From: Eledone cirrhosa
Lineage: Eukaryota
NCBI GenBank assembly: GCA_964016885.1
Contig: OZ024741.1
Span: 11,036,001-11,100,000, forward strand
DNA length: 64,000 nucleotides
Reading direction: 5' to 3'
Shown: in pieces, positions 2,402 to 64,000 of the stretch
Numbering within the stretch: the stretch's first letter is position 1
Layout of the letters: each line of letters starts with the position of its first letter
Program-made: the position numbers and the translations under genes
Notes under the pieces: model-generated
What the model saw: the letters and a program-made list of their open reading frames with translations, nothing else
Database searches by the model: none
What the model was told of the DNA's origin: nothing

Positions 2402-2439
<38 letters not shown>

Positions 2440-2442
<3 letters not shown>

Positions 2443-5400
2443 CCCTCTGCCGCTCATATCGAATTTCGTTTTTCGTGAACTCGTGCGCCGATTTTTCGAT
2501 ACTCGATCTTTCTAATATATTTAGCTCTGGACATAGCTATCCACCAGTTAATTTTATTGCTCATTTTTTGTCGATTCTATTGAGTGATGAATAGCTTTTG
2601 TTTTATTTTAACATGTCTATTGAGCACTCTAATTCGATATGTGTATTTCCACATTCACTCGAATTGTTTTCGCGGATATAGGGGTCATCTCCCTTGTCTA
2701 ATGCCATGTGCGTTTTTCACCGCTAGTTGACTCCTTTGCCGCCAGGAAAAAACTCGTTGACAACGTAAACTCCGTTCCACTTATTCTAGTAGGCTTTTAT
2801 ATTTATATGTGAGCTGATAGAGTACTGTCTAAGGATTTACAGAAACCCATGAAGCTAGATTTAACACCTTTCTAGTGGGTCCGGGTATGATTTTACATTC
2901 ATTTAAATTATTGACGTATTGTTTTATTGATATTTTTTATCTGTTTGGCCCGAATCTTCCTTTATCGATTTTAAATCGTATGGTTGATTGTAGACTTGTT
3001 CTATATGTGACGGTATTTTAACGATAGTTATAGCTCTGATTCATCTGAATTATTGAGCCCTCTGCCGCTCATATCGAATTTCGTTTTTCGTGAACTCGTG
3101 CGCCGATTTTTCGATACTCGATCTTTCTAATATATTTAGCTCTGGACATAGCTATCCACCAGTTAATTTTATTGCTCATTTTTTGTCGATTCTATTGAGT
3201 GATGAATAGCTTTTGTTTTATTTTAACATGTCTATTGAGCACTCTAATTCGATATGTGTATTTCCACATTCACTCGAATTGTTTTCGCGGATATAGGGGT
3301 CATCTCCCTTGTCTAATGCCATGTGCGTTTTTCACCGCTAGTTGACTCCTTTGCCGCCAGGAAAAAACTCGTTGACAACGTAAACTCCGTTCCACTTATT
3401 CTAGTAGGCTTTTATATTTATATGTGAGCTGATAGAGTACTGTCTAAGGATTTACAGAAACCCATGAAGCTAGATTTAACACCTTTCTAGTGGGTCCGGG
3501 TATGATTTTACATTCATTTAAATTATTGACGTATTGTTTTATTGATATTTTTTATCTGTTTGGCCCGAATCTTCCTTTATCGATTTTAAATCGTATGGTT
3601 GATTGTAGACTTGTTCTATATGTGACGGTATTTTAACGATAGTTATAGCTCTGATTCATCTGAATTATTGAGCCCTCTGCCGCTCATATCGAATTTCGTT
3701 TTTCGTGAACTCGTGCGCCGATTTTTCGATACTCGATCTTTCTAATATATTTAGCTCTGGACATAGCTATCCACCAGTTAATTTTATTGCTCATTTTTTG
3801 TCGATTCTATTGAGTGATGAATAGCTTTTGTTTTATTTTAACATGTCTATTGAGCACTCTAATTCGATATGTGTATTTCCACATTCACTCGAATTGTTTT
3901 CGCGGATATAGGGGTCATCTCCCTTGTCTAATGCCATGTGCGTTTTTCACCGCTAGTTGACTCCTTTGCCGCCAGGAAAAAACTCGTTGACAACGTAAAC
4001 TCCGTTCCACTTATTCTAGTAGGCTTTTATATTTATATGTGAGCTGATAGAGTACTGTCTAAGGATTTACAGAAACCCATGAAGCTAGATTTAACACCTT
4101 TCTAGTGGGTCCGGGTATGATTTTACATTCATTTAAATTATTGACGTATTGTTTTATTGATATTTTTTATCTGTTTGGCCCGAATCTTCCTTTATCGATT
4201 TTAAATCGTATGGTTGATTGTAGACTTGTTCTATATGTGACGGTATTTTAACGATAGTTATAGCTCTGATTCATCTGAATTATTGAGCCCTCTGCCGCTC
4301 ATATCGAATTTCGTTTTTCGTGAACTCGTGCGCCGATTTTTCGATACTCGATCTTTCTAATATATTTAGCTCTGGACATAGCTATCCACCAGTTAATTTT
4401 ATTGCTCATTTTTTGTCGATTCTATTGAGTGATGAATAGCTTTTGTTTTATTTTAACATGTCTATTGAGCACTCTAATTCGATATGTGTATTTCCACATT
4501 CACTCGAATTGTTTTCGCGGATATAGGGGTCATCTCCCTTGTCTAATGCCATGTGCGTTTTTCACCGCTAGTTGACTCCTTTGCCGCCAGGAAAAAACTC
4601 GTTGACAACGTAAACTCCGTTCCACTTATTCTAGTAGGCTTTTATATTTATATGTGAGCTGATAGAGTACTGTCTAAGGATTTACAGAAACCCATGAAGC
4701 TAGATTTAACACCTTTCTAGTGGGTCCGGGTATGATTTTACATTCATTTAAATTATTGACGTATTGTTTTATTGATATTTTTTATCTGTTTGGCCCGAAT
4801 CTTCCTTTATCGATTTTAAATCGTATGGTTGATTGTAGACTTGTTCTATATGTGACGGTATTTTAACGATAGTTATAGCTCTGATTCATCTGAATTATTG
4901 AGCCCTCTGCCGCTCATATCGAATTTCGTTTTTCGTGAACTCGTGCGCCGATTTTTCGATACTCGATCTTTCTAATATATTTAGCTCTGGACATAGCTAT
5001 CCACCAGTTAATTTTATTGCTCATTTTTTGTCGATTCTATTGAGTGATGAATAGCTTTTGTTTTATTTTAACATGTCTATTGAGCACTCTAATTCGATAT
5101 GTGTATTTCCACATTCACTCGAATTGTTTTCGCGGATATAGGGGTCATCTCCCTTGTCTAATGCCATGTGCGTTTTTCACCGCTAGTTGACTCCTTTGCC
5201 GCCAGGAAAAAACTCGTTGACAACGTAAACTCCGTTCCACTTATTCTAGTAGGCTTTTATATTTATATGTGAGCTGATAGAGTACTGTCTAAGGATTTAC
5301 AGAAACCCATGAAGCTAGATTTAACACCTTTCTAGTGGGTCCGGGTATGATTTTACATTCATTTAAATTATTGACGTATTGTTTTATTGATATTTTTTAT

Positions 5401-7440
5401 CTGTTTGGCCCGAATCTTCCTTTATCGATTTTAAATCGTATGGTTGATTGTAGACTTGTTCTATATGTGACGGTATTTTAACGATAGTTATAGCTCTGAT
5501 TCATCTGAATTATTGAGCCCTCTGCCGCTCATATCGAATTTCGTTTTTCGTGAACTCGTGCGCCGATTTTTCGATACTCGATCTTTCTAATATATTTAGC
5601 TCTGGACATAGCTATCCACCAGTTAATTTTATTGCTCATTTTTTGTCGATTCTATTGAGTGATGAATAGCTTTTGTTTTATTTTAACATGTCTATTGAGC
5701 ACTCTAATTCGATATGTGTATTTCCACATTCACTCGAATTGTTTTCGCGGATATAGGGGTCATCTCCCTTGTCTAATGCCATGTGCGTTTTTCACCGCTA
5801 GTTGACTCCTTTGCCGCCAGGAAAAAACTCGTTGACAACGTAAACTCCGTTCCACTTATTCTAGTAGGCTTTTATATTTATATGTGAGCTGATAGAGTAC
5901 TGTCTAAGGATTTACAGAAACCCATGAAGCTAGATTTAACACCTTTCTAGTGGGTCCGGGTATGATTTTACATTCATTTAAATTATTGACGTATTGTTTT
6001 ATTGATATTTTTTATCTGTTTGGCCCGAATCTTCCTTTATCGATTTTAAATCGTATGGTTGATTGTAGACTTGTTCTATATGTGACGGTATTTTAACGAT
6101 AGTTATAGCTCTGATTCATCTGAATTATTGAGCCCTCTGCCGCTCATATCGAATTTCGTTTTTCGTGAACTCGTGCGCCGATTTTTCGATACTCGATCTT
6201 TCTAATATATTTAGCTCTGGACATAGCTATCCACCAGTTAATTTTATTGCTCATTTTTTGTCGATTCTATTGAGTGATGAATAGCTTTTGTTTTATTTTA
6301 ACATGTCTATTGAGCACTCTAATTCGATATGTGTATTTCCACATTCACTCGAATTGTTTTCGCGGATATAGGGGTCATCTCCCTTGTCTAATGCCATGTG
6401 CGTTTTTCACCGCTAGTTGACTCCTTTGCCGCCAGGAAAAAACTCGTTGACAACGTAAACTCCGTTCCACTTATTCTAGTAGGCTTTTATATTTATATGT
6501 GAGCTGATAGAGTACTGTCTAAGGATTTACAGAAACCCATGAAGCTAGATTTAACACCTTTCTAGTGGGTCCGGGTATGATTTTACATTCATTTAAATTA
6601 TTGACGTATTGTTTTATTGATATTTTTTATCTGTTTGGCCCGAATCTTCCTTTATCGATTTTAAATCGTATGGTTGATTGTAGACTTGTTCTATATGTGA
6701 CGGTATTTTAACGATAGTTATAGCTCTGATTCATCTGAATTATTGAGCCCTCTGCCGCTCATATCGAATTTCGTTTTTCGTGAACTCGTGCGCCGATTTT
6801 TCGATACTCGATCTTTCTAATATATTTAGCTCTGGACATAGCTATCCACCAGTTAATTTTATTGCTCATTTTTTGTCGATTCTATTGAGTGATGAATAGC
6901 TTTTGTTTTATTTTAACATGTCTATTGAGCACTCTAATTCGATATGTGTATTTCCACATTCACTCGAATTGTTTTCGCGGATATAGGGGTCATCTCCCTT
7001 GTCTAATGCCATGTGCGTTTTTCACCGCTAGTTGACTCCTTTGCCGCCAGGAAAAAACTCGTTGACAACGTAAACTCCGTTCCACTTATTCTAGTAGGCT
7101 TTTATATTTATATGTGAGCTGATAGAGTACTGTCTAAGGATTTACAGAAACCCATGAAGCTAGATTTAACACCTTTCTAGTGGGTCCGGGTATGATTTTA
7201 CATTCATTTAAATTATTGACGTATTGTTTTATTGATATTTTTTATCTGTTTGGCCCGAATCTTCCTTTATCGATTTTAAATCGTATGGTTGATTGTAGAC
7301 TTGTTCTATATGTGACGGTATTTTAACGATAGTTATAGCTCTGATTCATCTGAATTATTGAGCCCTCTGCCGCTCATATCGAATTTCGTTTTTCGTGAAC
7401 TCGTGCGCCGATTTTTCGATACTCGATCTTTCTAATATAT
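2440..7440 (+). repeat. Tandem array of a 615-bp non-coding unit, 8 full copies plus ~80 bp, flanked by (TA)n
   Basis: GAGCCCTCTGCCGCTC recurs at 2440, 3055, 3670, 4285, 4900, 5515, 6130, 6745, 7360; no differences between copies seen by eye; no ORF in track. Confidence 0.98.
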
Positions 7441-7490
7441 ATATATATATAAATGTGTTTGTGCGCGCATGCGTGTAAGTGCGCGCGTGT

Positions 7491-7533
<43 letters not shown>

Positions 7534-8844: not shown

Positions 8845-9327
8845 GTCATAGCCAAGTTGATACTCCAGATATATGTCATAGCTAAGATGATACTCAAGAT
8901 ATGTCATAGCTAAGATGATACTCAAGATATATGTCATAGCCAAGTTGATACTCAAGATATATGTCATAGCCAAGTTGATACTCCAGATATATGTCATAGC
9001 TAAGATGATACTCAAGATATATGTCATAGCTAAGATGATACTCAAGATATATGTCATAGCCAAGTTGATACTCAAGATATATGTCATAGCCAAGTTGATA
9101 CTCCAGATATATGTCATAGCTAAGATGATACTCAAGATATATGTCATAGCCAAGTTGATACTCCAGATATATGTCATAGCTAAGATGATACTCAAGATAT
9201 ATGTCATAGCCAAGTTGATACTCCAGATATATGTCATAGCTAAGATGATACTCAAGATATATGTCATAGCCAAGTTGATACTCAATTCAAGATAGATGTC
9301 ATAGTCAAGTTGATACTCAAGATAGAC
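8845..9327. repeat. 30-bp minisatellite (GTCATAGCYAAGWTGATACTCMAGATATAT), ~16 copies
   Basis: 30-nt periodicity with a few recurring variants; explains ORFs 8815..9345 and 8915..9295. Confidence 0.96.
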
Positions 9328-10026: not shown

Positions 10027-10609
10027 CAGTTAATTTTATTGTTCATTTTTTGTCGATTCTATTAAATGATGAATAGCTCCTGTTTATTTTAACATGTCTA
10101 TTGAGCACTCTTATTCGATATGTGTATTTCCACATTTTCCCGAATATTTTTTTGCGGATATAGAGGTTATCTCCCTTGCTGAATTCCATGTGCGTTTTTT
10201 CAACCTGGGTTATGCCTTATCATTCGTTCGGACAAAAGCTCGTTGAGGAAATAAATTCCCGTCCGCTGGCTTCTAGAAGTCTTATATATTTTTATGTGAG
10301 CTGATAGAGGGCAGTTTAAGGATTTACAGAAACCCAAGAAGCTAGATTTACCATCTTTCTAGCGGGTCCGGGTATGCTTTTTACATTCATTTGATTTATT
10401 GATTTATTGATATTTTATCTGAGTGTCCCGAATCTTCCAGATCGCAATTTTTCGGTCGTATGGTTGATTTTAGACATGTTCTATATGTGACGGTATTTTA
10501 ACGATAGTTATAGCTCTGATTTATCTGAATTATTGAGCCCTCTGCCGCTCATTTCGAACTTTGTTTATCGTGAACTCGTGCGCCGATTTTTCGATACTCG
10601 ATTATTCTA
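10027..10609 (+). mobile_element. Diverged, circularly permuted near-monomer of the 615-bp element, flanked by (TA)n
   Basis: Collinear with the array from CAGTTAATTTTATTG across the unit junction to CTCGAT..TTCTA; many substitutions. Confidence 0.93.
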
Positions 10610-10938
10610 CTATATATATATATATATATATATATACCTCTTTCTGCATGCATGGTTGCATATTGATATGTGTGTCGGTAGAGGGGGTGGAAGGGGGAGA
10701 AGAAGATAATGAAGGAGAGAAAGAAAGAGAGAATTTACTGAGATAGATAGACAGAGAGAGACATATAAGTAGACAGATGGACAGACAGAGAGATAAACTG
10801 AGTGACAGATATAAACATACATATATATATGTGTGTGTGTGTACGTGTGTGTGAGTGTATATATATATATATATATAGCGAGAGAGGGAGTGTGTGTGTG
10901 TTAGATACATATAGATAGATAAATAGATAGATAGATAT

Positions 10939-11915
10939 ATTTCTTTATTAGCCACAGGGGCACAAAAGAAGGGGACAAATACAAAGGGGGAAGTTTACAT
11001 ACAATAAAAACGTGTAAAATGTTATCACAGATGGAATTTAAAAGTTAGTCGATTTTCCCCAATAGAGGGAGACAGTTTATATGGGTAACACAGACCCCCG
11101 AAAAAAATGTGCAACCCTCATCTCCAGGAGTACGAAGAGCTTGTACTCCTTTCCTCTCCTCCTCCTTTTCCTCAACCTACAGGCTGATATAAAGAGAAGG
11201 CCCATTCACTCGGGCCATTCTCGCCACTTTCACCCACCTTTCATAAAACTTGCTGGGGTACAGCACCTCTCTCTCCATCCTGATTCTTCTTCCAAAGTGG
11301 TATTTGAAAAAAAGAATCAGTTGTTGGCCGGAGAGAAAGGTGTCTGACCTCAGCCCTTTCAACCTTGTCCACCATACAACCTCTTTCGCCATAGCTATCA
11401 CACAAAGGAAAACCGCCTCTCCTTCGTTTTTGAAGGAGGGTGGCGGTTTGATCATGACAATGGACTCGGTGGTCAACTGGATTGGTCCCACCCGCGACAA
11501 TAGTCGTTCTACATAGCCCCACAGGTCAGTGACGCCCGGGCAGTGTATGAATGCGTGCGCGACGGTTTCTTCGTCTCGCACGCACCTCGGACAGATCTTT
11601 TTTGCAGGGTCCCTGCCCGGGCGCCCATGTCTGTATAGCTTGTCTCGAACTGGTAGAGCTCCTCGGTAGCACTGCCAGGCCAGGGACTTTTGGAAGTTGT
11701 CCATCGGTCCCGGGCGGAAGGTCCTACCGAACAGACTGGCCAGTTCATCTTCCTCCACGCCTAGAGTTTCACCGAGCGCGTCGTCGCACTTGCTGCGGAC
11801 CAACCCTCTATAGAATGACGAAGTGGAGTCTCCACTGATCGCCGGGTCCGCCTGCCAGAGGGCTGTGAGCGCCTGAGCACATTCGATGTGCCAGTCGCCC
11901 ATTTTCCTCGGTCTC
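10939..11915 (-). mobile_element. Tx1-like (L1 group) LINE, 5'-truncated copy A: zf-RVT/CCHC C-terminus and 3' UTR
   Basis: ORF 11177..11902 with WQCYRGALPVRDKL and CPRC..EETVAHAFIHC; both ends abut (GATA)n. Confidence 0.88.
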
Positions 11916-11940
11916 TAGATAGATAGATAGATAGATAGAT

Positions 11941-14212
11941 AATTTTCTTTTTATTTGCCACCAGGGCATCAAAAAGTGGGACAAGTACAATGGGGGGAGT
12001 TTACAAAAGAAGGCGTCCTCAATAAGGAGGAGGCAATAACAAGATATAAAAATAAAATACATAACAAAATAAATTTTATAACAAAATCCTCAATAGGGAG
12101 GAGGCACCTGGGGTCGCACACACCCCCGAAAAAAGTGTGCAACCCTTCTCCTCAGGAGCACAGAGAGGGGGTGCTGCCTTGATCTTTTATCTTCCTCACC
12201 TATAGTCTGATGTAGATTGAAGGCCCATTCACACGAGCCATTCTCGCCACTTTCACCCATCTTTCATAAAAACGGCTGGGGTGCAGCACCTCTCTCTCCA
12301 TCCTGATCCTTCTTCCGAAATGGTATCGGAAGAAACGGACCAGTTGTTGGCCAGAGAGAAAGGTGTCTGACCTCAGTCCTTTCAGACGCGCCACCATACA
12401 ACCTCTTTCGCCATGGCTATTACGCACAGAAACACCGCCTCTCCTTCGTTTTTGAAGAGGGGAGGCGGCTTGATCGTTACAATAGACTCGGTGGTCAACC
12501 GGATCGGTCCCACCCTTGACAGCAGTTGTTCGACATAGCCCCACAGATCGGCAATGCCCGAGCAGTGTACCAATGCGTGTGCAACGGTTTCCTCGTCGCA
12601 CACGCATCTGGGACAGATCTTTTTCGAGGGGTCCCTACCCGGGCGCCCGTGTCTGTAGAGCCTTTCTCGAACGGGCAGAGCCCTTCTGTAGCACTGCCAG
12701 GCCAGGGACCTCTGGAAGTTATCCATGGGTCCCGGGATGAATGTCCTACCGAACAGGTTGGCCAGTTCGTCTTCCTCCATGTCTAGGGCTTCTCCGAGGG
12801 CGTCGTCGCACCTGCTAACCACCAGCCCTCTATAGAATGACGAGGTGGATTCTCCACTGACAGCCGGGTCCGCCTGCCAGAGAGCCGTGAGCGCCTGGGC
12901 ACACTCGGTGTGCCAGGCGCCCAGTTTTCTCGGTCTTTGCTTGACCCAGGATTATAGCTCGGTGAGTGAGACGAGTGTGGGAAAGGCTCGCCTCACAAAC
13001 GCGGCCCACACCGATTGACCGGAGAGGAATACCTGGAGGTGCCGTAGCCTTAATGCGTGTTTACGTATCATTAACCACGGCATTCCAGCCCTCCTTTCGA
13101 AGGGTGTTGACAGCAGATGGATCTCCTCACCAAAGGAGCCCGCTTCTTCCAAAGGAATTGGAAGAGTGTGCGCTCCATTTTGGCGAGCGTTTCCCTTGCA
13201 ACAACTCCAACTTCCGCAGCAGTGGCTCTAGAATCATTACATATAGAAGGGAGGAGAGAGGGCACTCTTGTCGGATGGACCGGGCGATTTCGAACGGCTC
13301 CGAGAGGTAGCCGTTCACCTTGACCCTAGAGCAGATGCGGCTGCTGTGCATGGCATTGATCCAGCCCCTGAAAACGGGTCCGAAGCCTGCCGCCGCTAGC
13401 ACCGCATCCAGGTAACCATGGTCGACCCTATCGAACGCCTTAGATTGATCCAAATTGATCAGGGCCCCACCAAAGCCGGGTTCGTTCCCAACCCTCTCTA
13501 TGATGTATCGCATGAGGTGGAGGTTGTCGTGGATGGACCTGGACGGGATAGCACATGTCTGCGCATCTCCCACCAGGTTGCCCACGACAAGCGCCAACCT
13601 CTTTGCTAGCACCTTGGCCAAAATCTGTAACTCTGTATTTAGCAGAGTTATGGGCCTGAAATTATTTATATCGTCCCCCTTGTTCTCGTCCTTCCTCACT
13701 AGCGTGACTACGCCCTTGGTCACAGCACAGGGAATTCTCCCGTTCTGTTGCCAGTTGCAGTAGACCGCCTCGAGGAGATCGGGGAACAAGTCCGGCATAG
13801 CTAGATATAGTTCGTATGGAAGACCATCGAGACCCGGGGATTTGCGTTTGCCGCATTGGCTCAGCACGTCCTCTATCTCAGCGGCTGAAATCGGCTCCTC
13901 GCAGGACTTCGCCTCCCTGTCCGAGAGACGCGGCAGGCCGTCGAGGTATGGACCGAAGTCCACTTCCCCAACCGGCTCCTCGCCCCTTCTGAACAATCTG
14001 GCAAAGTGCTTTTGAAAAGCCTTGCACATCTGCTTAGGTTCAAGGATCACCCGTTCATCCTGGTCTCGCAAAGATCGGATAGTGGATCTACTCCCTCTTT
14101 TGGCTTCTGTCACGCGGGCCCAGCTAACAGCTTTCGTCCCCTCGTTTCCCAGAGCACGTATTTTGCTTCGGACGATGCAGCCTTCGTGTTTCGCGTCGAA
14201 GAACTGGCCCAG
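11941..14212 (-). mobile_element. Tx1-like LINE, 5'-truncated copy B with internally deleted, frameshifted RT
   Basis: RT motifs KSPGLDGLP, FRPITLLN, LDQSKAFDRV, RQECPLS in 13127..14113; YADD region missing; CCHC region 12382..12822; (GATA)n on both sides. Confidence 0.92.
13127..14113 (-). pseudogene. LINE ORF2 reverse transcriptase fragment
   Basis: Non-LTR RT motifs present up to QxCPLS, then a jump to the FQFLW...GGL region. Confidence 0.9.
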
Positions 14213-14264
14213 GATAGATAGATAGATCGTTACATATATATATATCTATATATATATGTGTGTG

Positions 14265-37776: not shown

Positions 37777-38231
37777 ATCACTATGTGATAAGGGGAAGGA
37801 GCATTGGCAATTAAACAACCATGCGGTTAATAAACTGACTGAAGATTGGATTAGTTACTTTAATAAATCTCAACAGGTTTGTGTGTTTTTATTGGCAACA
37901 TGACCCTACCTCTGTATAACAATATCTGTTTCAACACACGTTTCACATCAAGAATCCCGCAAAACAAATACAGAATGGAAGCATACATAGATACATATAT
38001 TTATATATATATAGGAAAAAGTATGACCCCGACGGCAGAGCTCAAGCCGTTTCGACGGCTATTTCTGGACTCGATGCGTTATGCTTCATCTGGTGCGTTC
38101 ATATGGTCCATCTGCTGCATTCTGGTGCGTTATGGTCCATCTGGTTCCTTATATAATTGGTGTGGGATGCTTAAAGCATCCCTAAGCGGTAGGCCGTTTG
38201 AGCACTCGATGCTCTTACAGAGCAGTGTATT

Positions 38232-38512: not shown

Positions 38513-38514
38513 GA

Positions 38515-39158
38515 TATATTTCTTTTATTTGCCACTAGGGCATCAAAAGTGGGACAAGTACAAAGGGGGGAGTTTACACAAAAAGGCGTCCTCAATAAGG
38601 AGGAGGCAATAACAAAATATAAAAATAAAATAAGATATAACAAAAAAAAAATTTTTTAACAAAATCCTCAATAGAGAGGAGGCGCCTTGGGGGGTCGCAC
38701 ACACCCCCGAAAAAAGTGTGCAACCCTTCTCCTCAGGAGCACAGGCACAGAGAAGGGGTGCTCCCTTGGTCTTTCATCTTCCTCACCTATAGTCTGATGT
38801 AGAGTGAAGGCCCATTCACACGGGCCATTCTCGCCACTTTCACCCATCTTTCATAGAAACGGCTGGGGTGCAGCACCTCTCTCTCCATCCTGATCCTTCT
38901 TCCGAAATGATATCGGAAGAAACGGACCAGTTGTTGGCCAGAGAGAAAGGTGCCCGACCTCAGTCCTTTCAGACGCGTCCACCATACAACCTCTTTCGCC
39001 ATGGCTATTACGCACAGAAACACCGCCTCTGCTTCATCTTTGAAGGGGGGAGGCGGCTTGATCATTACAATAGACTCGGTGGTCAACCGGATCGGTCCCA
39101 CCCTTGACAGCAGTTGTTCGACATAGCCCCACAGATCGGCTACGCCCGAGCAGTGTAC
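38515..39158 (-). mobile_element. Tx1-like LINE, 5'-truncated copy C (same subfamily as copy B)
   Basis: ORF 38787..39101 and 3' UTR closely match 11941-12570; (GATA)n/(TA)n flanks. Confidence 0.9.
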
Positions 39159-41443: not shown

Positions 41444-44400
41444 GACGTCACTTCCACACATGTATTGAGTTAAACCTGTCAGGTTAATATCAACTATTTT
41501 TTGACGTCACTTCCACACATGTATTGAGTACAACCTGTCAGGTTACAGTAAACTATTTTGTGACGTCACTTCCACACATATATTGAGTACAAACTGTCAG
41601 GTTAATATATATACTATTTGTGACGTCACTTCCAAACATGTATTGAGTACAACCTGTCAGGTTACTATAAACTATTTTGTTACGTCACTTCCACACATGT
41701 ATTGAGTACAACCTGTCAGGTTACTATAAACTATTTTTTGACGTCACTTCCACAAATGTATTGAGTACAACCTGTCAGGTTACAGTAAACTATTTTGTGA
41801 CGTCACTTCCACACATGTATTGAGTACAACCTATCAGGTTACTATAAACTATTTTGTGACGTCAGTTCCACACATGTATTGAGTACAACCTATCAGGTTA
41901 CTATAAACTATTTTGTGACGTCACTTCGACAAATGTATTGAGTACAACCTGTCAGGTTACTATGAACTATTTGTGACGTCACTTCCACACATGTATTGAG
42001 TACAACCTGTCAGGTTAATATAAAATATTTTGTGACGTCACTTCCACACATGTATTGAGTACAACCTGTCAGGTTAATATAAACTATTTGTGACGTCACT
42101 TCCACAAATGTATTGAGTACAACCTGTCAGGTTACTATAAACTATTTTGTGACGTCACTTCCACACATGTATTGAGTACAACCTGTCATTATACTATAAA
42201 CTATTTTGTGACGTCACTTCCAAACATGTATTGAGTACAACCTGTCATTATACTATAAACTATTTTGTGACGTCACTTCCACACATGTATTGAGTACAAC
42301 TTGTCAGTTTACTATAAACTATTTTGTGACGTCACTTCCACACATGTATTGAGTACAACCTGTCAGGTTAATATAAAATATTTTGTGACGTCACTTCCAC
42401 ACATGTATTGAGTACAAGTCAGGTTAATATAAACTATTTGTGACGTCACTTCCACACATGTATTGAGTACCACCTGTCAGGTATAAACTATTTGTGACTT
42501 CACTTCCACACCTGTATTGAGTACCACATGTCAGGTTAATATAAACTATTTGTGACGTCACTTCCACACATGTATTGAGTACAACCTGTCAGGTTACTAT
42601 AAACTATTTTGTGACGTCACTTCCACAAATGTATTGAGTACAACCTGTCAGGTTACTATAAACTATTTTGTGACGTCACTTCCACACATGTATTGAGTAC
42701 AACCTCTCAGGTAACTATAAACTATTTTGTGACGTCACTTCCACAAATGTATTGAGTACAACCTGTCAGGTTACTATAAACTATTTTGTGACGTCACTTC
42801 AACACATGTATTGAGTACAACTTGTCAGGTTGCTATAAACTATTTTGTGACGTCACTTCCAGACATGTATTGAGTACAATCTGTCAGGTTACTATAAACT
42901 ATTTTGTGACGTCACTTCCACACATGTATTGAGTACAACCTGTCAGGTTACTATAAACTATTTGTGACGTTACTTCCACACATGTATTGAGTACAACCTG
43001 TCATTATACTATAAACTATTTTGTGACGTCACTTCCACACATGTATTGAGTACAATCTGTCAGGTTTCTATCAAGTATTTGTGACGTCAGTTCCACACAT
43101 GTATTGAGTACAACCTATCAGGTTACTATAAACTATTTTGTGACGTCACTTCGACAAATGTATTGAGTACAACCTGTCAGGTTACTATGAACTATTTGTG
43201 ACGTCACTTCCACACATGTATTGAGTACAACCTGTCAGGTTAATATAAAATATTTTGTGACGTCACTTCCACACATGTATTGAGTACAACCTGTCAGGTT
43301 AATATAAACTATTGGTGACGTCACTTCCACAAATGTATTGAGTACAACCTGTCAGGTTACTATAAACTATTTTGTGACGTCACTTCCACACATGTATTGA
43401 GTACAACCTGTCATTATACTATAAACTATTTTGTGACGTCACTTCCAAACATGTATTGAGTACAACCTGTCATTATACTATAAACTATTTTGTGACGTCA
43501 CTTCCACACATGTATTGAGTACAACTTGTCAGTTTACTATAAACTATTTTGTGACGTCACTTCCACACATGTATTGAGTACAACCTGTCAGGTTAATATA
43601 AAATATTTTGTGACGTCACTTCCACACATGTATTGAGTACAAGTCAGGTTAATATAAACTATTTGTGACGTCACTTCCACACATGTATTGAGTACCACCT
43701 GTCAGGTATAAACTATTTGTGACTTCACTTCCACACCTGTATTGAGTACCACATGTCAGGTTAATATAAACTATTTGTGACGTCACTTCCACACATGTAT
43801 TGAGTACAACCTGTCAGGTTACTATAAACTATTTTGTGACGTCACTTCCACAAATGTATTGAGTACAACCTGTCAGGTTACTATAAACTATTTTGTGACG
43901 TCACTTCCACACATGTATTGAGTACAACCTCTCAGGTAACTATAAACTATTTTGTGACGTCACTTCCACAAATCTATTGAGTACAACCTGTCAGGTTACT
44001 ATAAACTATTTTGTGACGTCACTTCAACACATGTATTGAGTACAACTTGTCAGGTTGCTATAAACTATTTTGTGACGTCACTTCCAGACATGTATTGAGT
44101 ACAATCTGTCAGGTTACTATAAACTATTTTGTGACGTCACTTCCACACATGTATTGAGTACAACCTGTCAGGTTACTATAAACTATTTGTGACGTTACTT
44201 CCACACATGTATTGAGTACAACCTGTCATTATACTATAAACTATTTTGTGACGTCACTTCCACACATGTATTGAGTACAATCTGTCAGGTTTCTATCAAG
44301 TATTTGTGACGTCACTTCCACACATGTATTGAGTAAAACCTGTCAGGTTAATATAAACTATTTTGTGACGTCACTTCCACACATGTATTGAGTACAACCT

Positions 44401-46851
44401 GTCAGGTTAATATAAACTATTTTGTGACGTCACTTCCACACATGTATTGAGTACAACCTGTCAGGTTACTATAAACTATTTTATGACGTCACTTCCACAC
44501 ATGTATTGAGTACAACCTGTCATTATACTATAAACTATTTTGTGACGTCACTTCCAGACATGTATTGAGTACAACCTGTCATTATACTATAAACTATTTT
44601 GTGACGTCACTTCCACACATGTATTGAGTACAACCTGTCAGGTTAATATAAACTATTTGTGACGTCACTTCCATACATGTATTGAGTACAATCTGTCAGA
44701 TTACTATAAACTATTTTGTGACGTCACTTCCACACATGTATTGAGTACAACCTGTCAGGTTAATATAAACTATTTTGTGACGTCACTTCCACACATGTAT
44801 TGAGTACAACCTGTCAGGTTAATATAAACTATTTGTGACGTGACTTCCACACATGTATTGAGTACAACCTGTCAGGTTACTATAAACAATTTTGTGACGT
44901 CACTTCCACACATGTATTGAGTACAACCTGTCAGGTTACTATAAACTATTTTGTGACGTCACTTCCACAAATGTATTGAGTACAACCTGTCAGGTTACTA
45001 TAAATTATATTGTGACGTCACTTCCATACATGTATTGAGTACAACATGTCAGGTAACTATAAACTATTTTGTGACGTCACTTCCACACATGTATTGAGTA
45101 CAACCTGTCAGGTATAAACTATATGTGACGTCACTTCCACACCTGTATTGAGTACCACCTGTCAGGTATAAACTATTTGTGACGTCATTTCCACACCTGT
45201 ATTGAGTAACACCTGTCAGGTATAAACTATATGTGACGTCACTTCCACACCTGTATTGAGTAACACCTGTCAGGTATAAACTATATGTGACGTCACTTCC
45301 ACACCTGTATTGAGTACCACCTGTCAGGTATAAACTATTTGTGACGTCACTTCCACACCTGTATTGAGTACAACCTGTCAGGTATAAACTATATGTGACG
45401 TCATTTCCACACCTGTATTGAGTACCACCTGTCAGGTATAAACTATATGTGACGTCACTTCCACACCTGTATTGAGTACCACCTGTCAGGTATAAACTAT
45501 TTGTGACGTCACTTCCACACCTGTATTGAGTACAACCTGTCAGGTATATACTATATGTGACGTCATTTCCACACCTGTATTGAGTGCCACCTGTCAGGTA
45601 TAAACTATATGTGACGTCACTTCCTCACCTGTATTGAGTACAACCTGTCAGGTATAAACTATATGTGACGTCACTTCCTCACCTGTATTGAGTACAACCT
45701 GTCAGGTATAAACTATATGTGACGTCACTTCCTCACCTGTATTGAGTACAACCTGTCAGGTATAAACTATATGTGACGTCACTTCCACACCTGTATTGAG
45801 TGCCACCTGTCAGGTATATACTATATGTGACGTCACTTCCACACCTGTATTGAGTACCACCTGTCAGGTATATACTATATGTGACGTCACTTCCTCACCT
45901 GTATTGAGTGCCACCTGTCCGGTATAAACTATATGTGACGTCACTTCCACACCTGTATTGAGTACCACCTGTCAGGTATATACTCTATGTGACGTCACTT
46001 CCACACCTGTATTGAGTGCCACCTGTCAGGTATAAACTATATGTGACGTCACTTCCACACCTGTATTGAGTACCACCTGTCAGGTATAAACTATATGTGA
46101 CGTCACTTCCACACCTGTATTGAGTGCCACCTGTCAGGTATATACTATATGTGACGTCACTTCCACACCTGTATTGAGTACCACCTGTCAGGTATATACT
46201 ATATGTGACGTCACTTCCTCACCTGTATTGAGTGCCACCTGTCCGGTATAAACTATATGTGACGTCACTTCCACACCTGTATTGAGTACCACCTGTCAGG
46301 TATATACTATATGTGACGTCACTTCCTCACCTGTATTGAGTGCCACCTGTCAGGTATAAACTATATGTGACGTCACTTCCACACCTGTATTGAGTACCAC
46401 CTGTCAGGTATATACTCTATGTGACGTCACTTCCTCACCTGTATTGAGTGCCACCTGTCAGGTATAAACTATATGTGACGTCACTTCCACACCTGTATTG
46501 AGTACCACCTGTCAGGTATATACTCTATGTGACGTCACTTCCTCACCTGTATTGAGTGCCACCTGTCAGGTATAAACTATATGTGACGTCACTTCCACAC
46601 CTGTATTGAGTACCACCTGTCAGGTATAAACTATATGTGACGTCACTTCCACACCTGTATTGAGTACCACCTGTCAGGTATATACTCTATGTGACGTCAC
46701 TTCCACACCTGTATTGAGTGCCACCTGTCAGGTATATACTCTATGTGACGTCACTTCCACACCTGTATTGAGTGCCACCTGTCAGGTATAAACTATATGT
46801 GACGTCACTTCCACACCTGTATTGAGTACCACCTGTCAGGTATAAACTATA
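41444..46851. repeat. Satellite of 58-59-bp units switching to 55-bp units near 45100, ~90-95 copies, each with GTGACGTCACTTCC
   Basis: Periodicity seen directly; 1225-bp internal duplication 41856-43080 / 43081-44305. Confidence 0.98.
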
Positions 46852-50395: not shown

Positions 50396-51580
<1,185 letters not shown>

Positions 51581-51777: not shown

Positions 51778-51780
<3 letters not shown>

Positions 51781-52638
51781 CGGCGATGAATTTGTTTTGC
51801 AAGGTTTTTGATACGAAATCGTTGTCGAAACAAATATTGTTATACCCCCAGATAAACTGTAAAACTAGAAACGTAGTCTATAGCATAAGATGTACAGAGG
51901 GTACTTGCAGAGACATGACAACGACATATATAAGTGAGACAGCTCGAAGCATAGGAGAAATGATAGACCAACACTGGGGGGAATTAAAGGGACAAAAAAG
52001 AAAACGGTTCAATACTATACGAACACGCCAGACAAAAACACGACGGTAACATAGGCAATAGAAATTAAAATATATCTAAACATAGAAATGACCCAGCAGA
52101 TAGGCAAATCAGAGAAACGAGCGAAATAGAACTTAGAAAGTCAAAGTTAAACAGAATAAACAAACAATACTGACTTAAGAGAAGTATAAATAAATAAATA
52201 AATATATACACAAGTACAATAACAACAAACACATATAAACACACACTCATAAACAAAGATAGAATACAAAAACCAAAACACATACACTCAAACGCGAACA
52301 CACACCAAATATTATATACACACGCAAACGCATGCGTAGAGACGGAGACAAAATAAATAAATAAATAAATAAATAAAATAAAAATGGCGTAAACACAACA
52401 CATGAAAATAGTACCACTGATGATGTTGCAGATGTGCAACGAAAGAACTTTGTTAGACTATATATATATTTATATCAGTATTTTTTAATTGTTGGTCAAT
52501 CAATGATAAACGTTGATTGCCAAATAAATTAACTATGGAGATATAAAAGATGCAGATTCGAATACCAACCAAACAGTGAGTGTGTACTGTTATTATTTCT
52601 GGCAATATTATTACAACAATATGACCCTCCCCAAGTTT

Positions 52639-52645
<7 letters not shown>
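51778..52645 (+). mobile_element. Degenerate Penelope-like 3' fragment (GIY-YIG remnant + pLTR) with short inverted 5' tail
   Basis: INCKTRNVVYSIRCTEG...YISETARSIGE is homologous to the GIY-YIG region near 63080-63210; hammerhead at 52413-52454. Confidence 0.85.
52413..52454 (+). ncRNA. Minimal hammerhead ribozyme in pLTR
   Basis: CTGATGA-T-GTTGCA gatg TGCAAC-GAAA-GAAC-TT; stem II covaries with the 63625-63667 copy. Confidence 0.72.
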
Positions 52646-55400: not shown

Positions 55401-55602
55401 GTGAGGTTCTTTTTACAAAATGAAAAATAACCGAGGTGTCCTACACGAGTGAAAGTATAAGAAAAAAAGATGAAATCGAAAATGCAACTGGAGTCTTATT
55501 TTTAAAAAAATATATATATTTATTTGGTTCCTTTACCGGTTTCGCAGTTTTCTGCTTTTCAAAAGTAGAGTTAAGATGGAGGGTCTGTGGTTTTTCTCAA
55601 AT
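55393..55602 (-). mobile_element. Penelope pLTR fragment with U3-A8 hammerhead (55530-55565)
   Basis: Reverse complement of 1815-2021. Confidence 0.85.
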
Positions 55603-56112
55603 CTGATATATATATATATATATATATTTCGTTTCTGAATTTGTTTAGCAAGATTCTTTATCTGAAAACGTGTGTTGAAACCGATATTGTTATACTTTGG
55701 GAGGGTCATGTTGCCAATAAGAAACACACGCACCAGTTGCTTTCACTTCAATTTATTATAATAAATTTATAAGTTTAGGAATTTATAAATTTTCGGTTGG
55801 TTGGTTGGTTCCACAACCAGATGATTGTTTATATATTGTCAAAGTTCTTTCGTCACACATTCTGTGACCTCTTCAGTGACTGGGGATTCTTTTCTTTGTT
55901 TTTGTGCCTCTCCTTTCTTCTGTCCTACGCCATCTTGTTTTTAAAATAACAAGATGGCATATAAACAATCATCTGGTTGTGGAACCAACCAACCAACCAA
56001 GCGGAAATTTATAAATTCCTAAATTTATAAATTTATTATAATAAATTGAAGTGAAAGCAACTGGTGCGTGTGTTTCTTATTGGCAACATGACCCTCCCAA
56101 AGTATAACAATA
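55603..56112. mobile_element. Fold-back pLTR fragment of the 60067-63876 Penelope family, hammerhead at 55838-55880 (minus)
   Basis: Near-identical to ~63570-63876; ~55686-55833 is inverted at ~55960-56112. Confidence 0.88.
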
Positions 56113-57394: not shown

Positions 57395-57399
<5 letters not shown>

Positions 57400-59357
57400 A
57401 AAAAAGATGAAATTGAAAATGCAACTGGAGTCTTATTTTAAAAAAATATATATATATTTATTTGGTTCCTTTACCGGTTTCGCAGTTCTTCTGTTTTTCA
57501 AAAGTAGAGTTGAGATGGAGGGTTTATGGTTTTTCTCACATCTGGTTGGTCTTTGAATGTTACTTGTTTTATATGGGAAAAAGTGGCTCGAAACGCCAGG
57601 TTTTTAGAGAAGTAATTTGATTGGTTGGTGAACAAGTATAATAAATTTCGCGCCAGTTCGCGTTACAAAGTTCTTCAAACAAAGGGGGAGGTGCTCAGGT
57701 TGTTTTTTCATATATGAGTGAAATTTGGTTGGTTGATGCAGTCACGTGAATAAGCATATCAGGCTTCGCGCCAGTTTGTTTGAATTTCTTTTTACTTAAA
57801 AAAAAGTGGCTCACGAAGGCTTTTTTTTTATAAATGCAATTTGATTGGTTATAAATGAAATTAAGACTGTCACGTGAACAAGTTCATTAAATTTCGCGCC
57901 CGTATTTTGGAATTTATTTTGTAGCCTTTTAGAGAATTTTATGACAACCAAAAGATAATGGTCAAGAGAAATGGGATGGGGAGAATTGTTCTGGTTCAGT
58001 GAATATGGCTGGTTCGCTGGGTTGTCAGAATTCAGACTTTCTATTGAAATAAAGAAAGTAGAAATATGTATGTTTATTTGTGTGCTTGTGTGTGAGTGTG
58101 TGTGTGAAAGAAGATGACTCTATTAGTAGAAATGGGGGAGGGAGTTGTGTGTGTGTGTGGGAGTATGTTAAGATGACGAGAATATATATATTTTGTGTGT
58201 GTGTATGTGTGTAGGAAAATGATTCCGTTAGTAGAAATGGCAGGGGGAGTTATGTGTGCGGGGGGAGGGGGTTAATGTGTTAGAGTATTAAGGTATGTTA
58301 AGGTTTATTTAGTTCTGGTTTTTATTTTCTAAAGTAGAAGGTGTTATGTGTGTGTGTATGTATGTGTCTGTTTGGATGGTTAGCATGTTATGGTGTTGAC
58401 ATAATGTATATTAAACTATATTTAATGCTGGTATATATTTTTGAATAAACATATTTTCCTTATTTATACAGCGCAAAGGTAAAATGGGAAGACTTGGAAT
58501 TTGGGTTTCTTATTACTTGCGCATATGTCAAGATATGCACTTAGTGGTATGTCTCGTGGTTGGATCTCGTAATTGTTGGCGATGAACTGTCATTCTGTTC
58601 CTGAGTGTGAGTTTAGTTTGTCCTATATAATCTTGCATCATTTACATTTAATGGCATAAATTAGATTTTTTGATGAGCAAGTGAAGTGATTTTTTACAGT
58701 AAAATGTTGTTTGATAGAAATGTATACGTGTTGCCTTCAATGAGGTGAGTGCAGGTTCCACAATTAGAGCGACCACATTTTTTGACAGTTGGTTGTGGGT
58801 TTGTGGTAGGTAATTTGGCATTGGTGAGTAATGTTTTTAGTGATTTCGATTGTCTTTTGCTTTTGATTATTTTGTGTGTTTCAAGGGCTTTTTTCATTAT
58901 TGGGTCTTGTTTTAATAGTGGGATGTTCTTGTGAATAGTGTTGTAAGCTTCCGCATTTCTTGGGTTGTGTGTTGAGATATATGATAGAATATTGGACGTA
59001 CCTTGAATTTGTTTCTGTTTTCGTAATTCATCAATGCCTATTGCTTTAGCCCTTTCTATTCCATTATTTATTAGAGTAGAATTTCCTTTAAAGTAGAATT
59101 TCCTTTAATTCTTGAAGTCTTTTATTTCGCGTTTCATAATTGGAGACAATTGTGCAAATTCTTCTTGCTATGTTAAAAGGAATGTTCGTCTTCGTGTGCT
59201 TTGGATGGTTGGAGGTGAATAGCAGGTATTGTTTGGAATCTGTTGGTTTGCAGTGTATGTCAGTTTCAATATTTGTGTCTTTTTTTTAAGATTAAGATGT
59301 CCAGAAATGGGAGTTGATCTTGGCTGTATTCCATTGTGAATTGGATGTGGTTATTGA
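57395..59357 (-). mobile_element. 5'-truncated Penelope/Poseidon-type element: RT thumb, Cys linker, GIY-YIG, 3' UTR/pLTR with hammerhead (57468-57504)
   Basis: Minus-strand translation with frameshifts: IQFTME...LPFLDI, KPTDSKQYL, HPKHTKTNIPFNIARRIC, CGRSNCGTC, NLIYAIKC...YIGQT..LRNRMTVH, PALN. Confidence 0.9.
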
Positions 59358-59454
59358 AACCTCGTGTTTTTGTTTCCCATATTTTTTCTCATTTTTCCCG
59401 TTCCTTCCTCTCATCATTCTTTACTTTCTATCTATCTTATATTTCTAACTCATT

Positions 59455-60006: not shown

Positions 60007-60074
<68 letters not shown>

Positions 60075-60223
60075 ATACTTTGGGAGGGTCATGTTGCCAA
60101 TAAGAAACACACGCACCAGTTGTTTCACTTCAATTTATTATAATAAATTTATAAATTTAGGAATTTATAAATTTATAAATTTCTGGTTGGTTGGTTCCAC
60201 AACCAGATAGTTGTTTATATATT

Positions 60224-60266
60224 GTCAAAGTTCTTTCGTCACACATTCTGTGACCTCTTCAGTGAC
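60224..60266 (-). ncRNA. Hammerhead in inverted 5' pLTR
   Basis: Reverse complement of 63625-63667. Confidence 0.75.
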
Positions 60267-60393
60267 TGGGGATTCTTTTCTTTGTTTTTGTGCCTCTCCT
60301 TTGTTCTGTCCTACGCCATTTTGTTTCTGTGTGTGTGTTGTGTGCTCAGTCTGCGCATGCGCCAAATCCGGGTGTCTGTGTGTGTTTACATTC

Positions 60394-63300
60394 AAGAAGG
60401 TAAATATGATTAGTTGTCTGTCAGAAATAGAAAAATCATTTACAAAATTACGTTGGAGCCTCAAAAACAAAAACAAAAACAAAAGTAACAACATACGCAC
60501 ACACATATACAACACACATCCCAACAACAACAGACACAGAGACACAAACAACAATAACAACAACACACACACCAACAATAATAACATACTCAGAAACAAC
60601 AACAGACACGCAGACACAAACAACAATAACAACACACACAACAATAATAACACACACTGAGACAGCAACAACAACACACATCAACAACAGCACACATCAA
60701 CAACAACAACAACACACACACATTCAATGCCTCTCACCACCACCACAATCTTAACAAACACACAGACACAGAAAACAAGTAATGACAGTAGTACAGAAAT
60801 CACAGAAATAAGGGAAAGTAATAGGATTAAAAGGAGAAGGGTGACTATGGACAAAGAAAATAACAAAGACGAACACACAGACACACAAAATAGAGTAGAT
60901 AATAACAATGAGCCAGTGGAAAGAGACAGGAGTAATTATGAGAGACATAGAAACAACCATGAGGCTGTTGGTGGAAATAGAAATAGAAACAACGCAACTA
61001 ACAATAACAATAGCACTAGTACACATAAAGCAGCAGCCTGGAACTCTACTTTTTATAATCCCTCCGATAAGTCATTCGACCTGCGACGAGTCCACGCCAC
61101 GACTTTACCATTTAACAAACGCACGCAATTGCCGTCGCAGGTCGATGAACAAACAGAAGCACAATTTAGTATAGCTAGATCCGAACTTAGAAATATTATA
61201 GAACAGTATAGCAAGAAGCATAATAGAATGGAGGCCCAGCAACTGGGAGAAAAATCTGCAAATGGCTTGCGTAAGCTCATGCACCGCTCGCGTAATGGAG
61301 AGATAGCATGCTTTCCAACAGACAAGTCTGGCAGAATGTCGGTTGACAGCCTGTCAAACTACATCCAGGCAATGCAACCCCACATCACAAACACAAGAGA
61401 GGTAACACCACAGGAGCATGAGGATAGAGAAAAAGCCCTCAATGCCCATATGGTGATGTGGACGAATATAATGCAGCCCAACAAAAGGACTGCCAACAAC
61501 TTCCAGGCCTGGAAAAATGACGTGCCGGCGTTGTATGGGCTTCGAAAAGACCATAAAACGGGCAGTGACCCTGTCACGGGACCACCAACACGGCCAGTCT
61601 GTGGAGCTAACATTGCTAGTAACTACAGACTGTCCTACTTCCTCTCCCTGATCATACGCCCCATCATTGAAATGTCCCCAGATGTATGTGACAGCACGGA
61701 GGACCTCCTCAGCAGAATCAGCGAGGGTAACCGATCTAGGGACCTAACAAACTGCATAATAGGTAGTATTGATGTTGTGTCCCTGTATCCATCTATTGAC
61801 GTGGATTTTGCTGTGGAGAAATGCGTAGAAATGATCAGTGAGAGCAATGTTGAGTTCCGTGGGATTGATACCAGTGAGCTGGGACTTCTACTTAAACTTA
61901 CCTATAATAATAATTACCTAGACACATATGACCTTAGCAACCTGTGCCCTACAAGACCAGCAAGAGGCAGACCACTTACCATTACCTCAATGGCCAAGAA
62001 AACCCACACAGATAGATGGAACGGGTGGACCAGAGCCATACGGACACCCAAAAACCACAACGAACAGAAGAAAATGATTGCACATGCGGTAGGGGCCAGC
62101 ATAAAACCAACCCTTAAGGAACATATGTTCAAATTTATTGGAAAAACATATGCCCAAGAGGAAGGAGCAGCCATTGGTGTTAGCATTGCAGGCGACATAG
62201 CTAACTTATTCATGGTATGGTGGGAGAGTTGACTTAAACTTAAACTTAAAGAACAATTAGAAGACCCCTTAACCCTGATAATGTACTCCCGCTACGTTGA
62301 TGATATAAACATCGTAGTTAAGACACCGCCACTAGAGAACAGTCAGGAACTAGAGAAAAACACAATGCAAAGCATCCAGCAAATAGCTAACTCCATCCAC
62401 CAGAGTATTAAAGTTACTATAGACTACCCAAGTAAACACCCCAACCATCGATTACCTGTACTAGACACAGAGCTCTGGTTAGATACCATTAATAACAAAA
62501 AACAAATCCTCCATTCCCATTATGCCAAACCCATGACTTCCAAACATCTGATCCACCGAAACTTGGCTGTTTCGGGCCATACCAAAATCAACATACTGAT
62601 TGCGGATTTGGTACGGGTGATGAGAAACGTGTCCCGCATGTGCAACCCCAAAGAACTAGAGAGACACATACAACACTTCATCCACCATATGCAGTTCTCT
62701 GGTTACAATCAGAGAGATAAAATCAGAGTGTATAGAGGAGCCTGAACCAAATGGGAAAAAATGGTAAATAATGACACAAATGGGACCTGCCCTTTGTATA
62801 GGAGCAAATTTTGGAATAGAATAGAAAGAACTAGGAATAAGGCTAATAGAATAAACTCATGGTATGATAGCAATAAATACCAGAGTGTAATGTTCATCGA
62901 TACAACCCCTAGAGGTGAATTAGCTTACAAATTTAGAAAGGCCCTAGATAAACATAAACTCAATATTAAGATAGTAGAAAGACCAGGTACCTCCGTAAAA
63001 ACACTTATTAGCAAGACATACCCTTTTCAAAGACCCCCCTGTATAGATAAGAAATGTATAACCTGTAAAATAAGCCCCCATATTAATTGTAAAACTAGAA
63101 ATGTAGTGTATAGCATAAGATGTACTGAAGGACAATGTAGAGACAAAAATATAGTGTACATAGGTGAGACAGCTCGTAGTGTAGGGGAACGGATAAATGA
63201 ACACTGGCGAGACCTTCAAGATAGTAAAGAATCATCTGTACTCTACCAACATGCTAAAATAGAACATAAGGGTAAATTAGAGAACATAGAAATAAAAATA

Positions 63301-63423
63301 GAATCTACACACATAAAAGACGCAATGTTTAGACAAATCACAGAGACAATAAACATAAAAGAATTAAAACCAAAATTAAATAGAAAATATGAGTGGAACA
63401 GCAACATCACAACTTACAATTAA
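60394..63423 (+). pseudogene. Penelope RT-GIY-YIG polyprotein, a single frame interrupted by three TGA codons
   Basis: ORFs 60211, 60727, 62281 and 62761 share one frame; motifs TDKSG, LYGLRKDHK, RPV, SIDVVSLYPSI, QEEGAAIG, RYVDD, LPVLD, CIDKKCITC, NVVY...YIGETAR..ERINEH, KPKLN. Confidence 0.93.
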
Positions 63424-63624
63424 GGACAAAATGAAAACACACACACACATAGAACAAACAACCAACCGGTAACATGTAAATAAACAAATAAATAAACGAA
63501 TGTAAACACACACAGACACCCGGATTTGGCGCATGCGCAGACTGAGCACACAACACACACACAGAAACAAAATGGCGTAGGACAGAACAAAGGAGAGGCA
63601 CAAAAACAAAGAAAAGAATCCCCA

Positions 63625-63667
63625 GTCACTGAAGAGGTCACAGAATGTGTGACGAAAGAACTTTGAC
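63625..63667 (+). ncRNA. Minimal hammerhead ribozyme in 3' pLTR
   Basis: GTCA-CTGAAGA-G-GTCACA gaatg TGTGAC-GAAA-GAAC-TT-TGAC. Confidence 0.8.
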
Positions 63668-64000
63668 AATATATAAACAACTATCTGGTTGTGGAACCAA
63701 CCAACCAACCAGAAATTTATAAATTCCTAAATTTATAAATTTATTATAATAAATTGAAGTGAAAGCAACTGGTGCGTGTGTTTCTTATTGGCAACATGAC
63801 CCTCCCAAAGTATAACAATATCGGTTTCAACACACGATTTCAGATAAAGAATCTTGCTAAACAAATTCAGAAACGATATATATATATATATATATATATA
63901 TAGGATCGATCGAATTCCGTCAAATCGGACCGAGGAAACGATGTTTTCGTCGGTCTTTCCAATTGCTAATACTATCTATCGGTCGCAACTCCAGGCAGAA

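Follow-up and report, generated by a model that had tools for sequence, protein, structure and literature searches.

A 615-nt non-coding unit in TA microsatellites of Eledone cirrhosa, a probable retrozyme-like passenger of a Penelope-like element

A 615-nt non-coding unit in the genome of Eledone cirrhosa is probably a non-autonomous, retrozyme-like passenger of a Penelope-like element (PLE) that targets (TA)n, with copying that starts at one fixed AU patch and goes round an RNA circle, and without a canonical ribozyme. The unit is found as a tandem array and as one diverged single copy, the monomer, in a window of 64,000 nucleotides (contig OZ024741.1, positions 11,036,001 to 11,100,000 of the forward strand; all coordinates below are those of the window). 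Our reading would follow from the comparison of these two insertions only.

The array (2440..7440, plus strand) consists of eight head-to-tail 615-nt units and the first 81 nt of a ninth, that is 8.13 error-free turns of the unit. The 8 units, all of which were compared, are 100% identical, with 0 differences. On its left end the array adjoins a (TA)n tract (2405..2439) with 1-nt microhomology. At the right junction (7435..7452) an ATATAT patch, unit positions 76-81, merges into (AT)n; it is the longest AT run of the unit and the putative priming end. The monomer (10027..10610, plus strand) is 584 nt long and goes from unit position 106 round to about 81. It is thus one turn less 24 nt, and its right end is the same as that of the array. 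Identity between monomer and array unit is 85% over 574 aligned columns with 85 substitutions (83% by BLAST with gaps). The 24-nt segment that is missing from the monomer (unit positions 82-105; 2521..2544, plus strand) is present in the array units and has predicted pairing with the first bases of the monomer. Both insertions are bounded by (TA)n on either side, and in both of the two the ATATAT patch is the right end. Their left ends are unlike: the array begins at unit position 1 and the monomer at 106, with microhomology of 1 nt and 0 nt, respectively. A longer AT run in the monomer (10283-10289) has not been used as an end. There is no open frame in the 615-nt circle, in which all six frames have 8-18 stops per turn; a zeta-virus-type endless ORF on both strands is ruled out by these stops.

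Beyond the TA tracts the flanks of the array (2353-2404 and 7453-7493) are about 80% alike. We rejected a target-site duplication as the source of this likeness; the sequences indicate instead an older tandem duplication into which the array was inserted. In neighbouring satellites the matches are 90-94%, unlike the identical array units. These minisatellites, at 41444-46850 (55-59 bp), 1-405 (30 bp) and 8845-9324 (30 bp), serve as a control that the assembly preserves repeat variation.

Target-primed reverse transcription leaves, as its signature, a right end that is fixed and has microhomology and a left end that varies, and on this pattern the RNA would be the plus strand. For identical sequence over more than one turn, a circular or tandem template would be needed. 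We infer a cycle in which plus-strand RNA, cut to monomers and closed, would occur as a 615-nt circle or as a head-to-tail multimer. The endonuclease of a (TA)n-targeting PLE would nick a TA microsatellite, the freed 3' end would anneal to the single AUAUAU patch of the RNA, and the reverse transcriptase (RT) of the helper would copy upstream from this patch. One such event may have ended 24 nt short of a full turn, giving the monomer, and another may have run 8 turns plus 81 nt, giving the array. The likely signals for the helper would be the conserved blocks that lie just upstream of the priming patch, among them a long rod described below.

A candidate for the helper type is present in the same window. 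The PLE at 60071..63877 (plus strand) has an inverted pLTR (60067-60393), an ORF for RT with a C-terminal GIY-YIG-like part, and a 3' tail. It looks full-length and has (TA)n on both sides, but this local copy is broken, with two stops in its ORF. What we take to be its RT and GIY-YIG-like motifs were recognised from general knowledge and from Craig et al.; Pfam searches with pieces of the ORF gave no RT or GIY-YIG match. Its linker carries a CX4CXXC motif, of the type proposed to give microsatellite bias in the available text of Craig et al. (10.1101/2021.04.23.441226). A type I hammerhead in the pLTR (63625..63667, plus strand) was used as a positive control in the ribozyme searches. Three of the four Penelope-like 3' tails in the window adjoin (AT)n directly and at the same point (63877, 55627 and 51779); between the fourth (37871-37975) and (AT)n about 25 bases intervene. 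The unit has no sequence similarity to the local pLTR (score 20 compared to a shuffled mean of 19), so that we infer the identity of the helper from target and end pattern only. A (TA)n-inserted PLE is the likely helper type.

The neighbourhood is rich in other repeats. Penelope-like elements in (TA)n with inverted pLTRs lie at 60071-63877, 55627-56110, 51779-52645, 37871-37975 and 58697-59800. Their tail is about 57 nt, type I hammerheads are found at 63629, 60234, 55848, 52417 and 59458, and the copies have two distinct (AT)n-abutting points, with and without tail. A TA-flanked foldback at 1698-1960 (arms of 68 and 54 nt at 94-97%) is either MITE-like or an inverted PLE-type end, and related copies lie near 55410-55600 and 57397-57560. 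An inverted-repeat structure between TA tracts at 50577-51345, whose arms of about 230 and 410 nt share ends, is possibly a further PLE-type inverted insertion. Tx1/L1-like LINE pieces stand in tandem on the minus strand at 10930-14245 and 38513-39158, each bounded by (TAGA)n; they have an RT match in Pfam, and their best named relative is in Argonauta hians. For two neighbouring retroelement proteins the best named matches are in Argonauta hians (67%) and Octopus vulgaris (73%). A 42-bp satellite (16419-37774; 509 copies, 21 kb, 94% matches) has, on either strand, open frames longer than 1000 codons, and its minus strand carries a CUGAGGA...GAAA word pattern.

An earlier, sequence-only reading of this DNA had reported nested long-range pairings kept in the diverged copy, and had seen in them selection on a compact rod-like or branched fold, as in viroid-like circular RNAs. 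All of these pairings fall within the first unit of the array (2440-7440). The words that it listed are present where it placed them, and the four monomer changes that it named (GTTCA, ATTTATC, TAGACATGTT and TCTAGC) are real. The nested long-range helices themselves (2559/3054, 2586/3039 and 2610/2991) are not predicted to form. Their pair probability in the partition function is 0.00 at every position, with the array unit folded as a circle and the monomer as a linear or circular molecule, and their 3' halves are taken up in a local rod at 2977-3102. A nest of 10-bp (at most one mismatch), 7-bp and 5-bp helices no more than 60 nt apart occurs in 8.0% of 6900 dinucleotide shuffles, and a long-range 10-bp helix alone in 73%. 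Note that the nest was counted with Watson-Crick pairs only, and the monomer itself therefore scored 0. According to these models the nested helices are most likely due to chance.

The two local hairpins of the sequence-only reading fared better. Its first hairpin (2630..2666, plus strand) is strong in the array unit, where AATTCGA/TCGAATT pairs with P of about 0.9 and ATGTG/CACAT (2639-2643/2650-2654) with P of 0.77. In the monomer AATTCGA/TCGAATT is weak (P about 0.19): an inner A-U pair has become A.C, a break that is missing from the list of changes given there, and the outer pair becomes U-A if a 1-nt gap is shifted. The second hairpin, GCTAGA/TCTAGT with a closing ACCC/GGGU helix (2845..2880, plus strand), is predicted in both array unit and monomer (P 0.83 and 0.99).

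That reading had also proposed to fold both strands in circular mode against shuffles. The plus strand does modestly better than its shuffles (z -2.1 for the array and -2.5 for the monomer, 40 shuffles each) and the minus strand less so (z -1.6 and -1.2, 40 shuffles each). Linear folding of the plus strand gives z -2.15 with 20 shuffles and z -3.07 with 100. Predicted fold energy is -0.22 to -0.25 kcal/mol per nt, and a local 120-nt scan has few windows with z below -2.5. The fold is predicted to be branched, with about 60% of the bases paired, and not a viroid-like rod. Nothing in this analysis demonstrates RNA-to-RNA replication as in viroids.

Whether structure has been preserved between the two copies was assessed against nulls with relocated substitutions in pair-by-pair, consensus-fold and single-sequence tests. 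Pair by pair, on a MAFFT alignment, the plus strand shows no signal: 24 breaks against 25.9 expected and 25 against 26.7, and no excess of two-sided changes (0 and 1). On the minus strand two of the measures are low (p 0.012, with 14 breaks against 21.2, and p 0.022). With consensus folds the plus strand is marginal (nulls 19/107 and 8/123) and the minus strand stronger (2/142). Both kinds of test are weakened by gap placement in variable regions, while folding of single sequences is independent of pair registers. In the latter test of the whole unit, nulls were as stable in 2/86 and 9/82 cases for the plus strand and in 25/102 and 61/108 for the minus strand. By region, plus-strand nulls were as stable in 0/300 and 9/300 cases at 2765-2842 and in 0/300 and 2/300 at 2950-3135 (two directions each), the regions having been drawn after the folds were seen and the tests numbering 24. 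For the minus strand of these two regions the counts were 52, 121, 73 and 135 of 300. The two-way plus-strand signal is absent in four of the six regions tested. On the minus strand, region 2545-2665 has one low test (3/300). The variable arm (2672-2742 versus 10154-10227) did not beat its null (247/300 and 35/300).

Two plus-strand arms stand out in these tests. The longer is a rod with a three-way junction at its tip (2977..3102), which lies inside the most conserved block and crosses the unit boundary at 3054/3055. It is predicted separately in array and monomer (z -2.2 and -3.4); when the array unit is folded whole as a circle, other pairings compete with its lower half. The other is a hairpin arm common to both copies (2779..2828), which is predicted to sequester the CUGAUAGAG box. 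If a 1-nt gap is shifted, it has one two-sided change: A2783-U2823 becomes C-G in the monomer. That the rod crosses the unit boundary and that the 24-nt segment pairs with the start of the monomer is as expected of a continuous circle. On these folding models we read the unit as having real but local plus-strand structure, and the preservation test of the arms indicates a structured ancestor rather than present selection. The general idea of the sequence-only reading, a plus-strand fold that mattered in the history of the element on a circular or tandem template, is supported in part by the two local arms and the insertion anatomy; its nested helices and the rod-like fold are given up.

The sequestered box is part of a hammerhead-like core (2814..2881, plus strand; 10301-10368 in the monomer), which is made up of CUGAUAGAG, GAAA and a 4-bp stem III-like helix ending in GUC. 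Its first box has an extra base, and proximal stem I is 1 bp. Stem II has 3 bp in the array; in the monomer it has 1 bp, and there the changed stem II bases re-pair with the upstream arm instead. In both copies the local minimum is about 16 kcal/mol lower than the hammerhead conformer, while the positive control, the PLE hammerhead at 63625-63667, has stems I and II in its minimum fold. A relaxed hammerhead pattern was found in 476/5000 shuffles. A stricter one (stem II of at least 3 and stem III of at least 4), set after the array had been seen, was found in 26/5000, and the monomer fails it. A complete type I hammerhead, which every unit of a non-LTR retrozyme should have, is lacking, given the extra base, the 1-bp stem I and the unkept stem II. 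Activity of the core is doubtful judging from the predicted folds, and we do not call it a ribozyme; it may be weak, dimer-dependent or dead. Since the defining hammerhead test failed, the element is retrozyme-like in its working and is not classed as a retrozyme.

Other ribozymes were searched for with patterns that we take to represent the known motifs. A type III hammerhead via the upstream hairpin is incomplete, with a 2-bp stem III that is found in the monomer only. A second GUA site, look-alikes of hairpin-ribozyme loops A and B, and twister, pistol and HDV words gave nothing complete, and pattern scans of the minus strand yielded no candidate. Rfam has nothing at gathering score in the window and only chance matches at E<=10 in array and monomer, which is weak evidence as Rfam also misses the PLE hammerhead tested. 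If the unit cuts itself, its cleaving motif is non-standard, and this suggests that scans which require a canonical hammerhead miss part of the class. Regarding cephalopods, the twisters that were tested were inactive, according to the available part of PMC11662667.

The 85 substitutions between array and monomer are clumped (variance 12.6 versus 3.6; none of 20000 permutations was as high). The primary sequence of the unit thus appears to be clearly constrained in blocks, although recombination between subfamilies could also cause clumping. CpG observed/expected is about 1.4 in both array unit and monomer, as compared to 0.52-0.80 in three neighbouring retroelement stretches and 0.70 in the background. 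CpG being undepleted, neither copy looks decayed in DNA. The plus strand of the unit is U-rich (41% T), and the sense strand of the candidate helper is A-rich.

No homologue of the unit was found in the collections scanned. A loose pattern of the core matched 39 viral loci and 119 metagenome loci (the latter in 3 of the 64 parts of the metagenome collection), none of which resembles the unit in BLAST. Exact conserved words of the unit gave 0 matches in the metagenome, prokaryote-genome and viral collections and 0 in phages; the plasmid collection gave 2 chance AT-rich matches. Among sequencing runs, 18 of the 24 listed, from 14 studies in all, contain part of the unit's words. Eleven runs with 8 organism labels contain half or more. 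Four runs with a small share (X15-X18), X13 and ten of the eleven high-share runs enter only through this count of words. Among the runs containing the words, none is listed as an RNA run. In four runs of the same study the share was 0.00, which is no proof of absence.

From run X1 came a single contig of 645 nt (615+30), closed upon itself; it has 1 difference (7041, at a weakly paired spot), and there are no flanks and no diverged copies. The head-to-tail joint therefore exists in unassembled data; X1 may be the window's own source, and the closed contig fits a circle or a tandem array alike. Run X12 gave a perfect piece of 231 nt (depth 3.5) and run X14 one of 144 nt (depth 2.2). Across the pieces of the unit from three runs, which belong to different studies, a single base in total departs from the window. 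The X12 and X14 pieces look like traces of one very abundant sequence, possibly from relatives, diet, infection or carry-over. Most contigs of X14 look C-to-T converted, but the cytosines of its perfect 144-nt piece are unchanged, suggesting that it was carried over from another library. In run X20 (Hi-C raw reads, of which about 2% were read) none of 12.8 million reads contained the unit, a count that, made without a control stretch, is no sign of absence.

Could the insertions have come about without a free RNA circle? A linear SINE-like or pLTR-like RNA might have been inserted once as a partial tandem (unit plus 81-nt terminal repeat) and then been expanded to 8 copies by unequal crossing-over. 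Such a recent expansion would equally yield identical units, and no working ribozyme is evident; moreover, in the available texts partial tandems are the normal PLE product (Craig et al., 10.1101/2021.04.23.441226) and local amplification is the favoured model (Li et al., 10.64898/2026.07.22.740005). Yet even the first insert requires a template longer than one turn, one that includes the 24-nt segment absent from the monomer; this segment pairs with the monomer's start, and the best-kept rod crosses the array unit boundary. We regard this course as unlikely. A role for RNA altogether is absent from the explanation by a pure DNA repeat, in which rolling-circle amplification of an extrachromosomal DNA circle or of a satellite unit was followed by capture at broken TA tracts through microhomology and the folds are incidental. 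TA tracts are prone to breakage, the right end has 6 nt of microhomology and the whole-unit covariation tests are weak, all of which would suit it. That two copies 15% apart share one end, that divergence is strongly uneven along the unit, and that the two arms are preserved specifically on the plus strand, with use of G-U pairs, speak against it, and we consider it very improbable. A Helitron was also considered. Helitrons have a 5' TC, a 3' CTRR with hairpin, a fixed 5' end and CTRR-TC joints in tandems. The array ends in CTAA but the monomer in CTAC, the units run on for at least 24 nt past this point, the left ends vary, the array has no CTRR-TC joint, and the fixed end is the wrong one.

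An RNA with a life of its own would be a different matter. In one version the unit is an endogenised viroid-like RNA, whose circle replicates RNA-to-RNA, possibly moves between hosts and enters the genome by reverse transcription only on occasion. The high CpG content and strong strand skew, the transition-rich re-pairing in the variable arm (2672-2742 versus 10154-10227), the hammerhead-like core inside a hairpin and the spread of the unit's words over runs of several organism labels are in line with it. However, that variable arm did not beat its null, the fold is branched and only moderately stable, and there is neither a minus-strand ribozyme motif nor an endless ORF. An RNA replicon is expected to vary more than 1 base across runs of different studies, and the X12 and X14 pieces are partial and shallow (depth 2-3.5), which fits trace carry-over between libraries. 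We therefore give this version, too, very little probability. The boldest reading, likewise improbable, is an animal analogue of the retroviroids: a circular RNA replicon of cephalopods that cleaves itself by a non-canonical motif, keeps an RNA life of its own, reaches other species, and enters TA microsatellites when a Penelope reverse transcriptase copies it in at a single fixed priming site. Its putative self-cleaving motif would be a hammerhead variant with the CUGAUAGA box or an unrecognised ribozyme in the three-way-junction rod.

Viroids, zeta viruses as well as betaviroid-like RNAs, as described in the available text of 10.64898/2026.09.16.752053, are like the unit in size range, in a length that is a multiple of three and in self-paired RNA. 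The unit is unlike them in its genomic DNA form, in having no full-length ORF in any frame and no ribozymes on both strands, and in not being rod-like. On this comparison a zeta virus or betaviroid identity was rejected. A viroid-like replicon fits poorly, as the fold is branched, with z of -1.2 to -3.1, rather than rod-like or highly paired on both strands. A literature search of main texts found no description of the element or of an octopod retrozyme; family lists in supplements may bear on novelty.

The passenger of a (TA)n-targeting PLE that we favour is closer to two other groups. Non-autonomous PLEs have a fixed 3' end, a variable 5' end, tandem copies and a microsatellite target, as is seen in both of our insertions, and for those with head-to-tail copies a similar cycle has been proposed in the accessible part of Craig et al. 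(10.1101/2021.04.23.441226). There, non-autonomous PLEs (compared were MRC1 of Chlamydomonas and the microsatellite-targeting Naiad/Neptune PLEs) are generally similar in their 3' part to an autonomous family, whereas the unit shows no such similarity to the one family in the window. The unit also has no inverted 5' copy and no tail extension beyond itself.

Non-LTR retrozymes are protein-free and low in GC, form head-to-tail units with monomers elsewhere and co-occur with PLEs, as far as the available texts of PMC7229834 and 10.64898/2026.07.22.740005 describe them. Here likewise a short non-coding unit of low GC is repeated head-to-tail, with a monomer elsewhere, and a PLE is present in the same genome as the broken 60071-63877 element. 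The 615-nt unit lies within the 51-972 bp range of Li et al. (10.64898/2026.07.22.740005) and exceeds the 150-450 bp that Cervera and de la Pena 2020 (PMC7229834) give for invertebrate units; in the latter paper the proposed cycle is also a primed reverse transcription of a circle. Unlike non-LTR retrozymes, the unit has no complete type I hammerhead and no visible target-site duplication, its two copies share an end at one AU patch within (TA)n, and there is no similarity to the local pLTR, while some known retrozymes and non-autonomous PLEs, according to the texts available, resemble the ends of their helpers. The return of animal retrozymes to the genome is put forward as a hypothesis in the accessible part of PMC7229834, and its mechanism is still open according to that of Li et al. 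(10.64898/2026.07.22.740005). In the unit both ends are readable to the base, one as a fixed AU-rich priming end in (TA)n and the other as a variable end, and the same end signature is seen in the (TA)n-inserted PLE of the same window. A PLE reverse transcriptase rolling round an RNA circle thereby becomes testable from genome-wide end maps.
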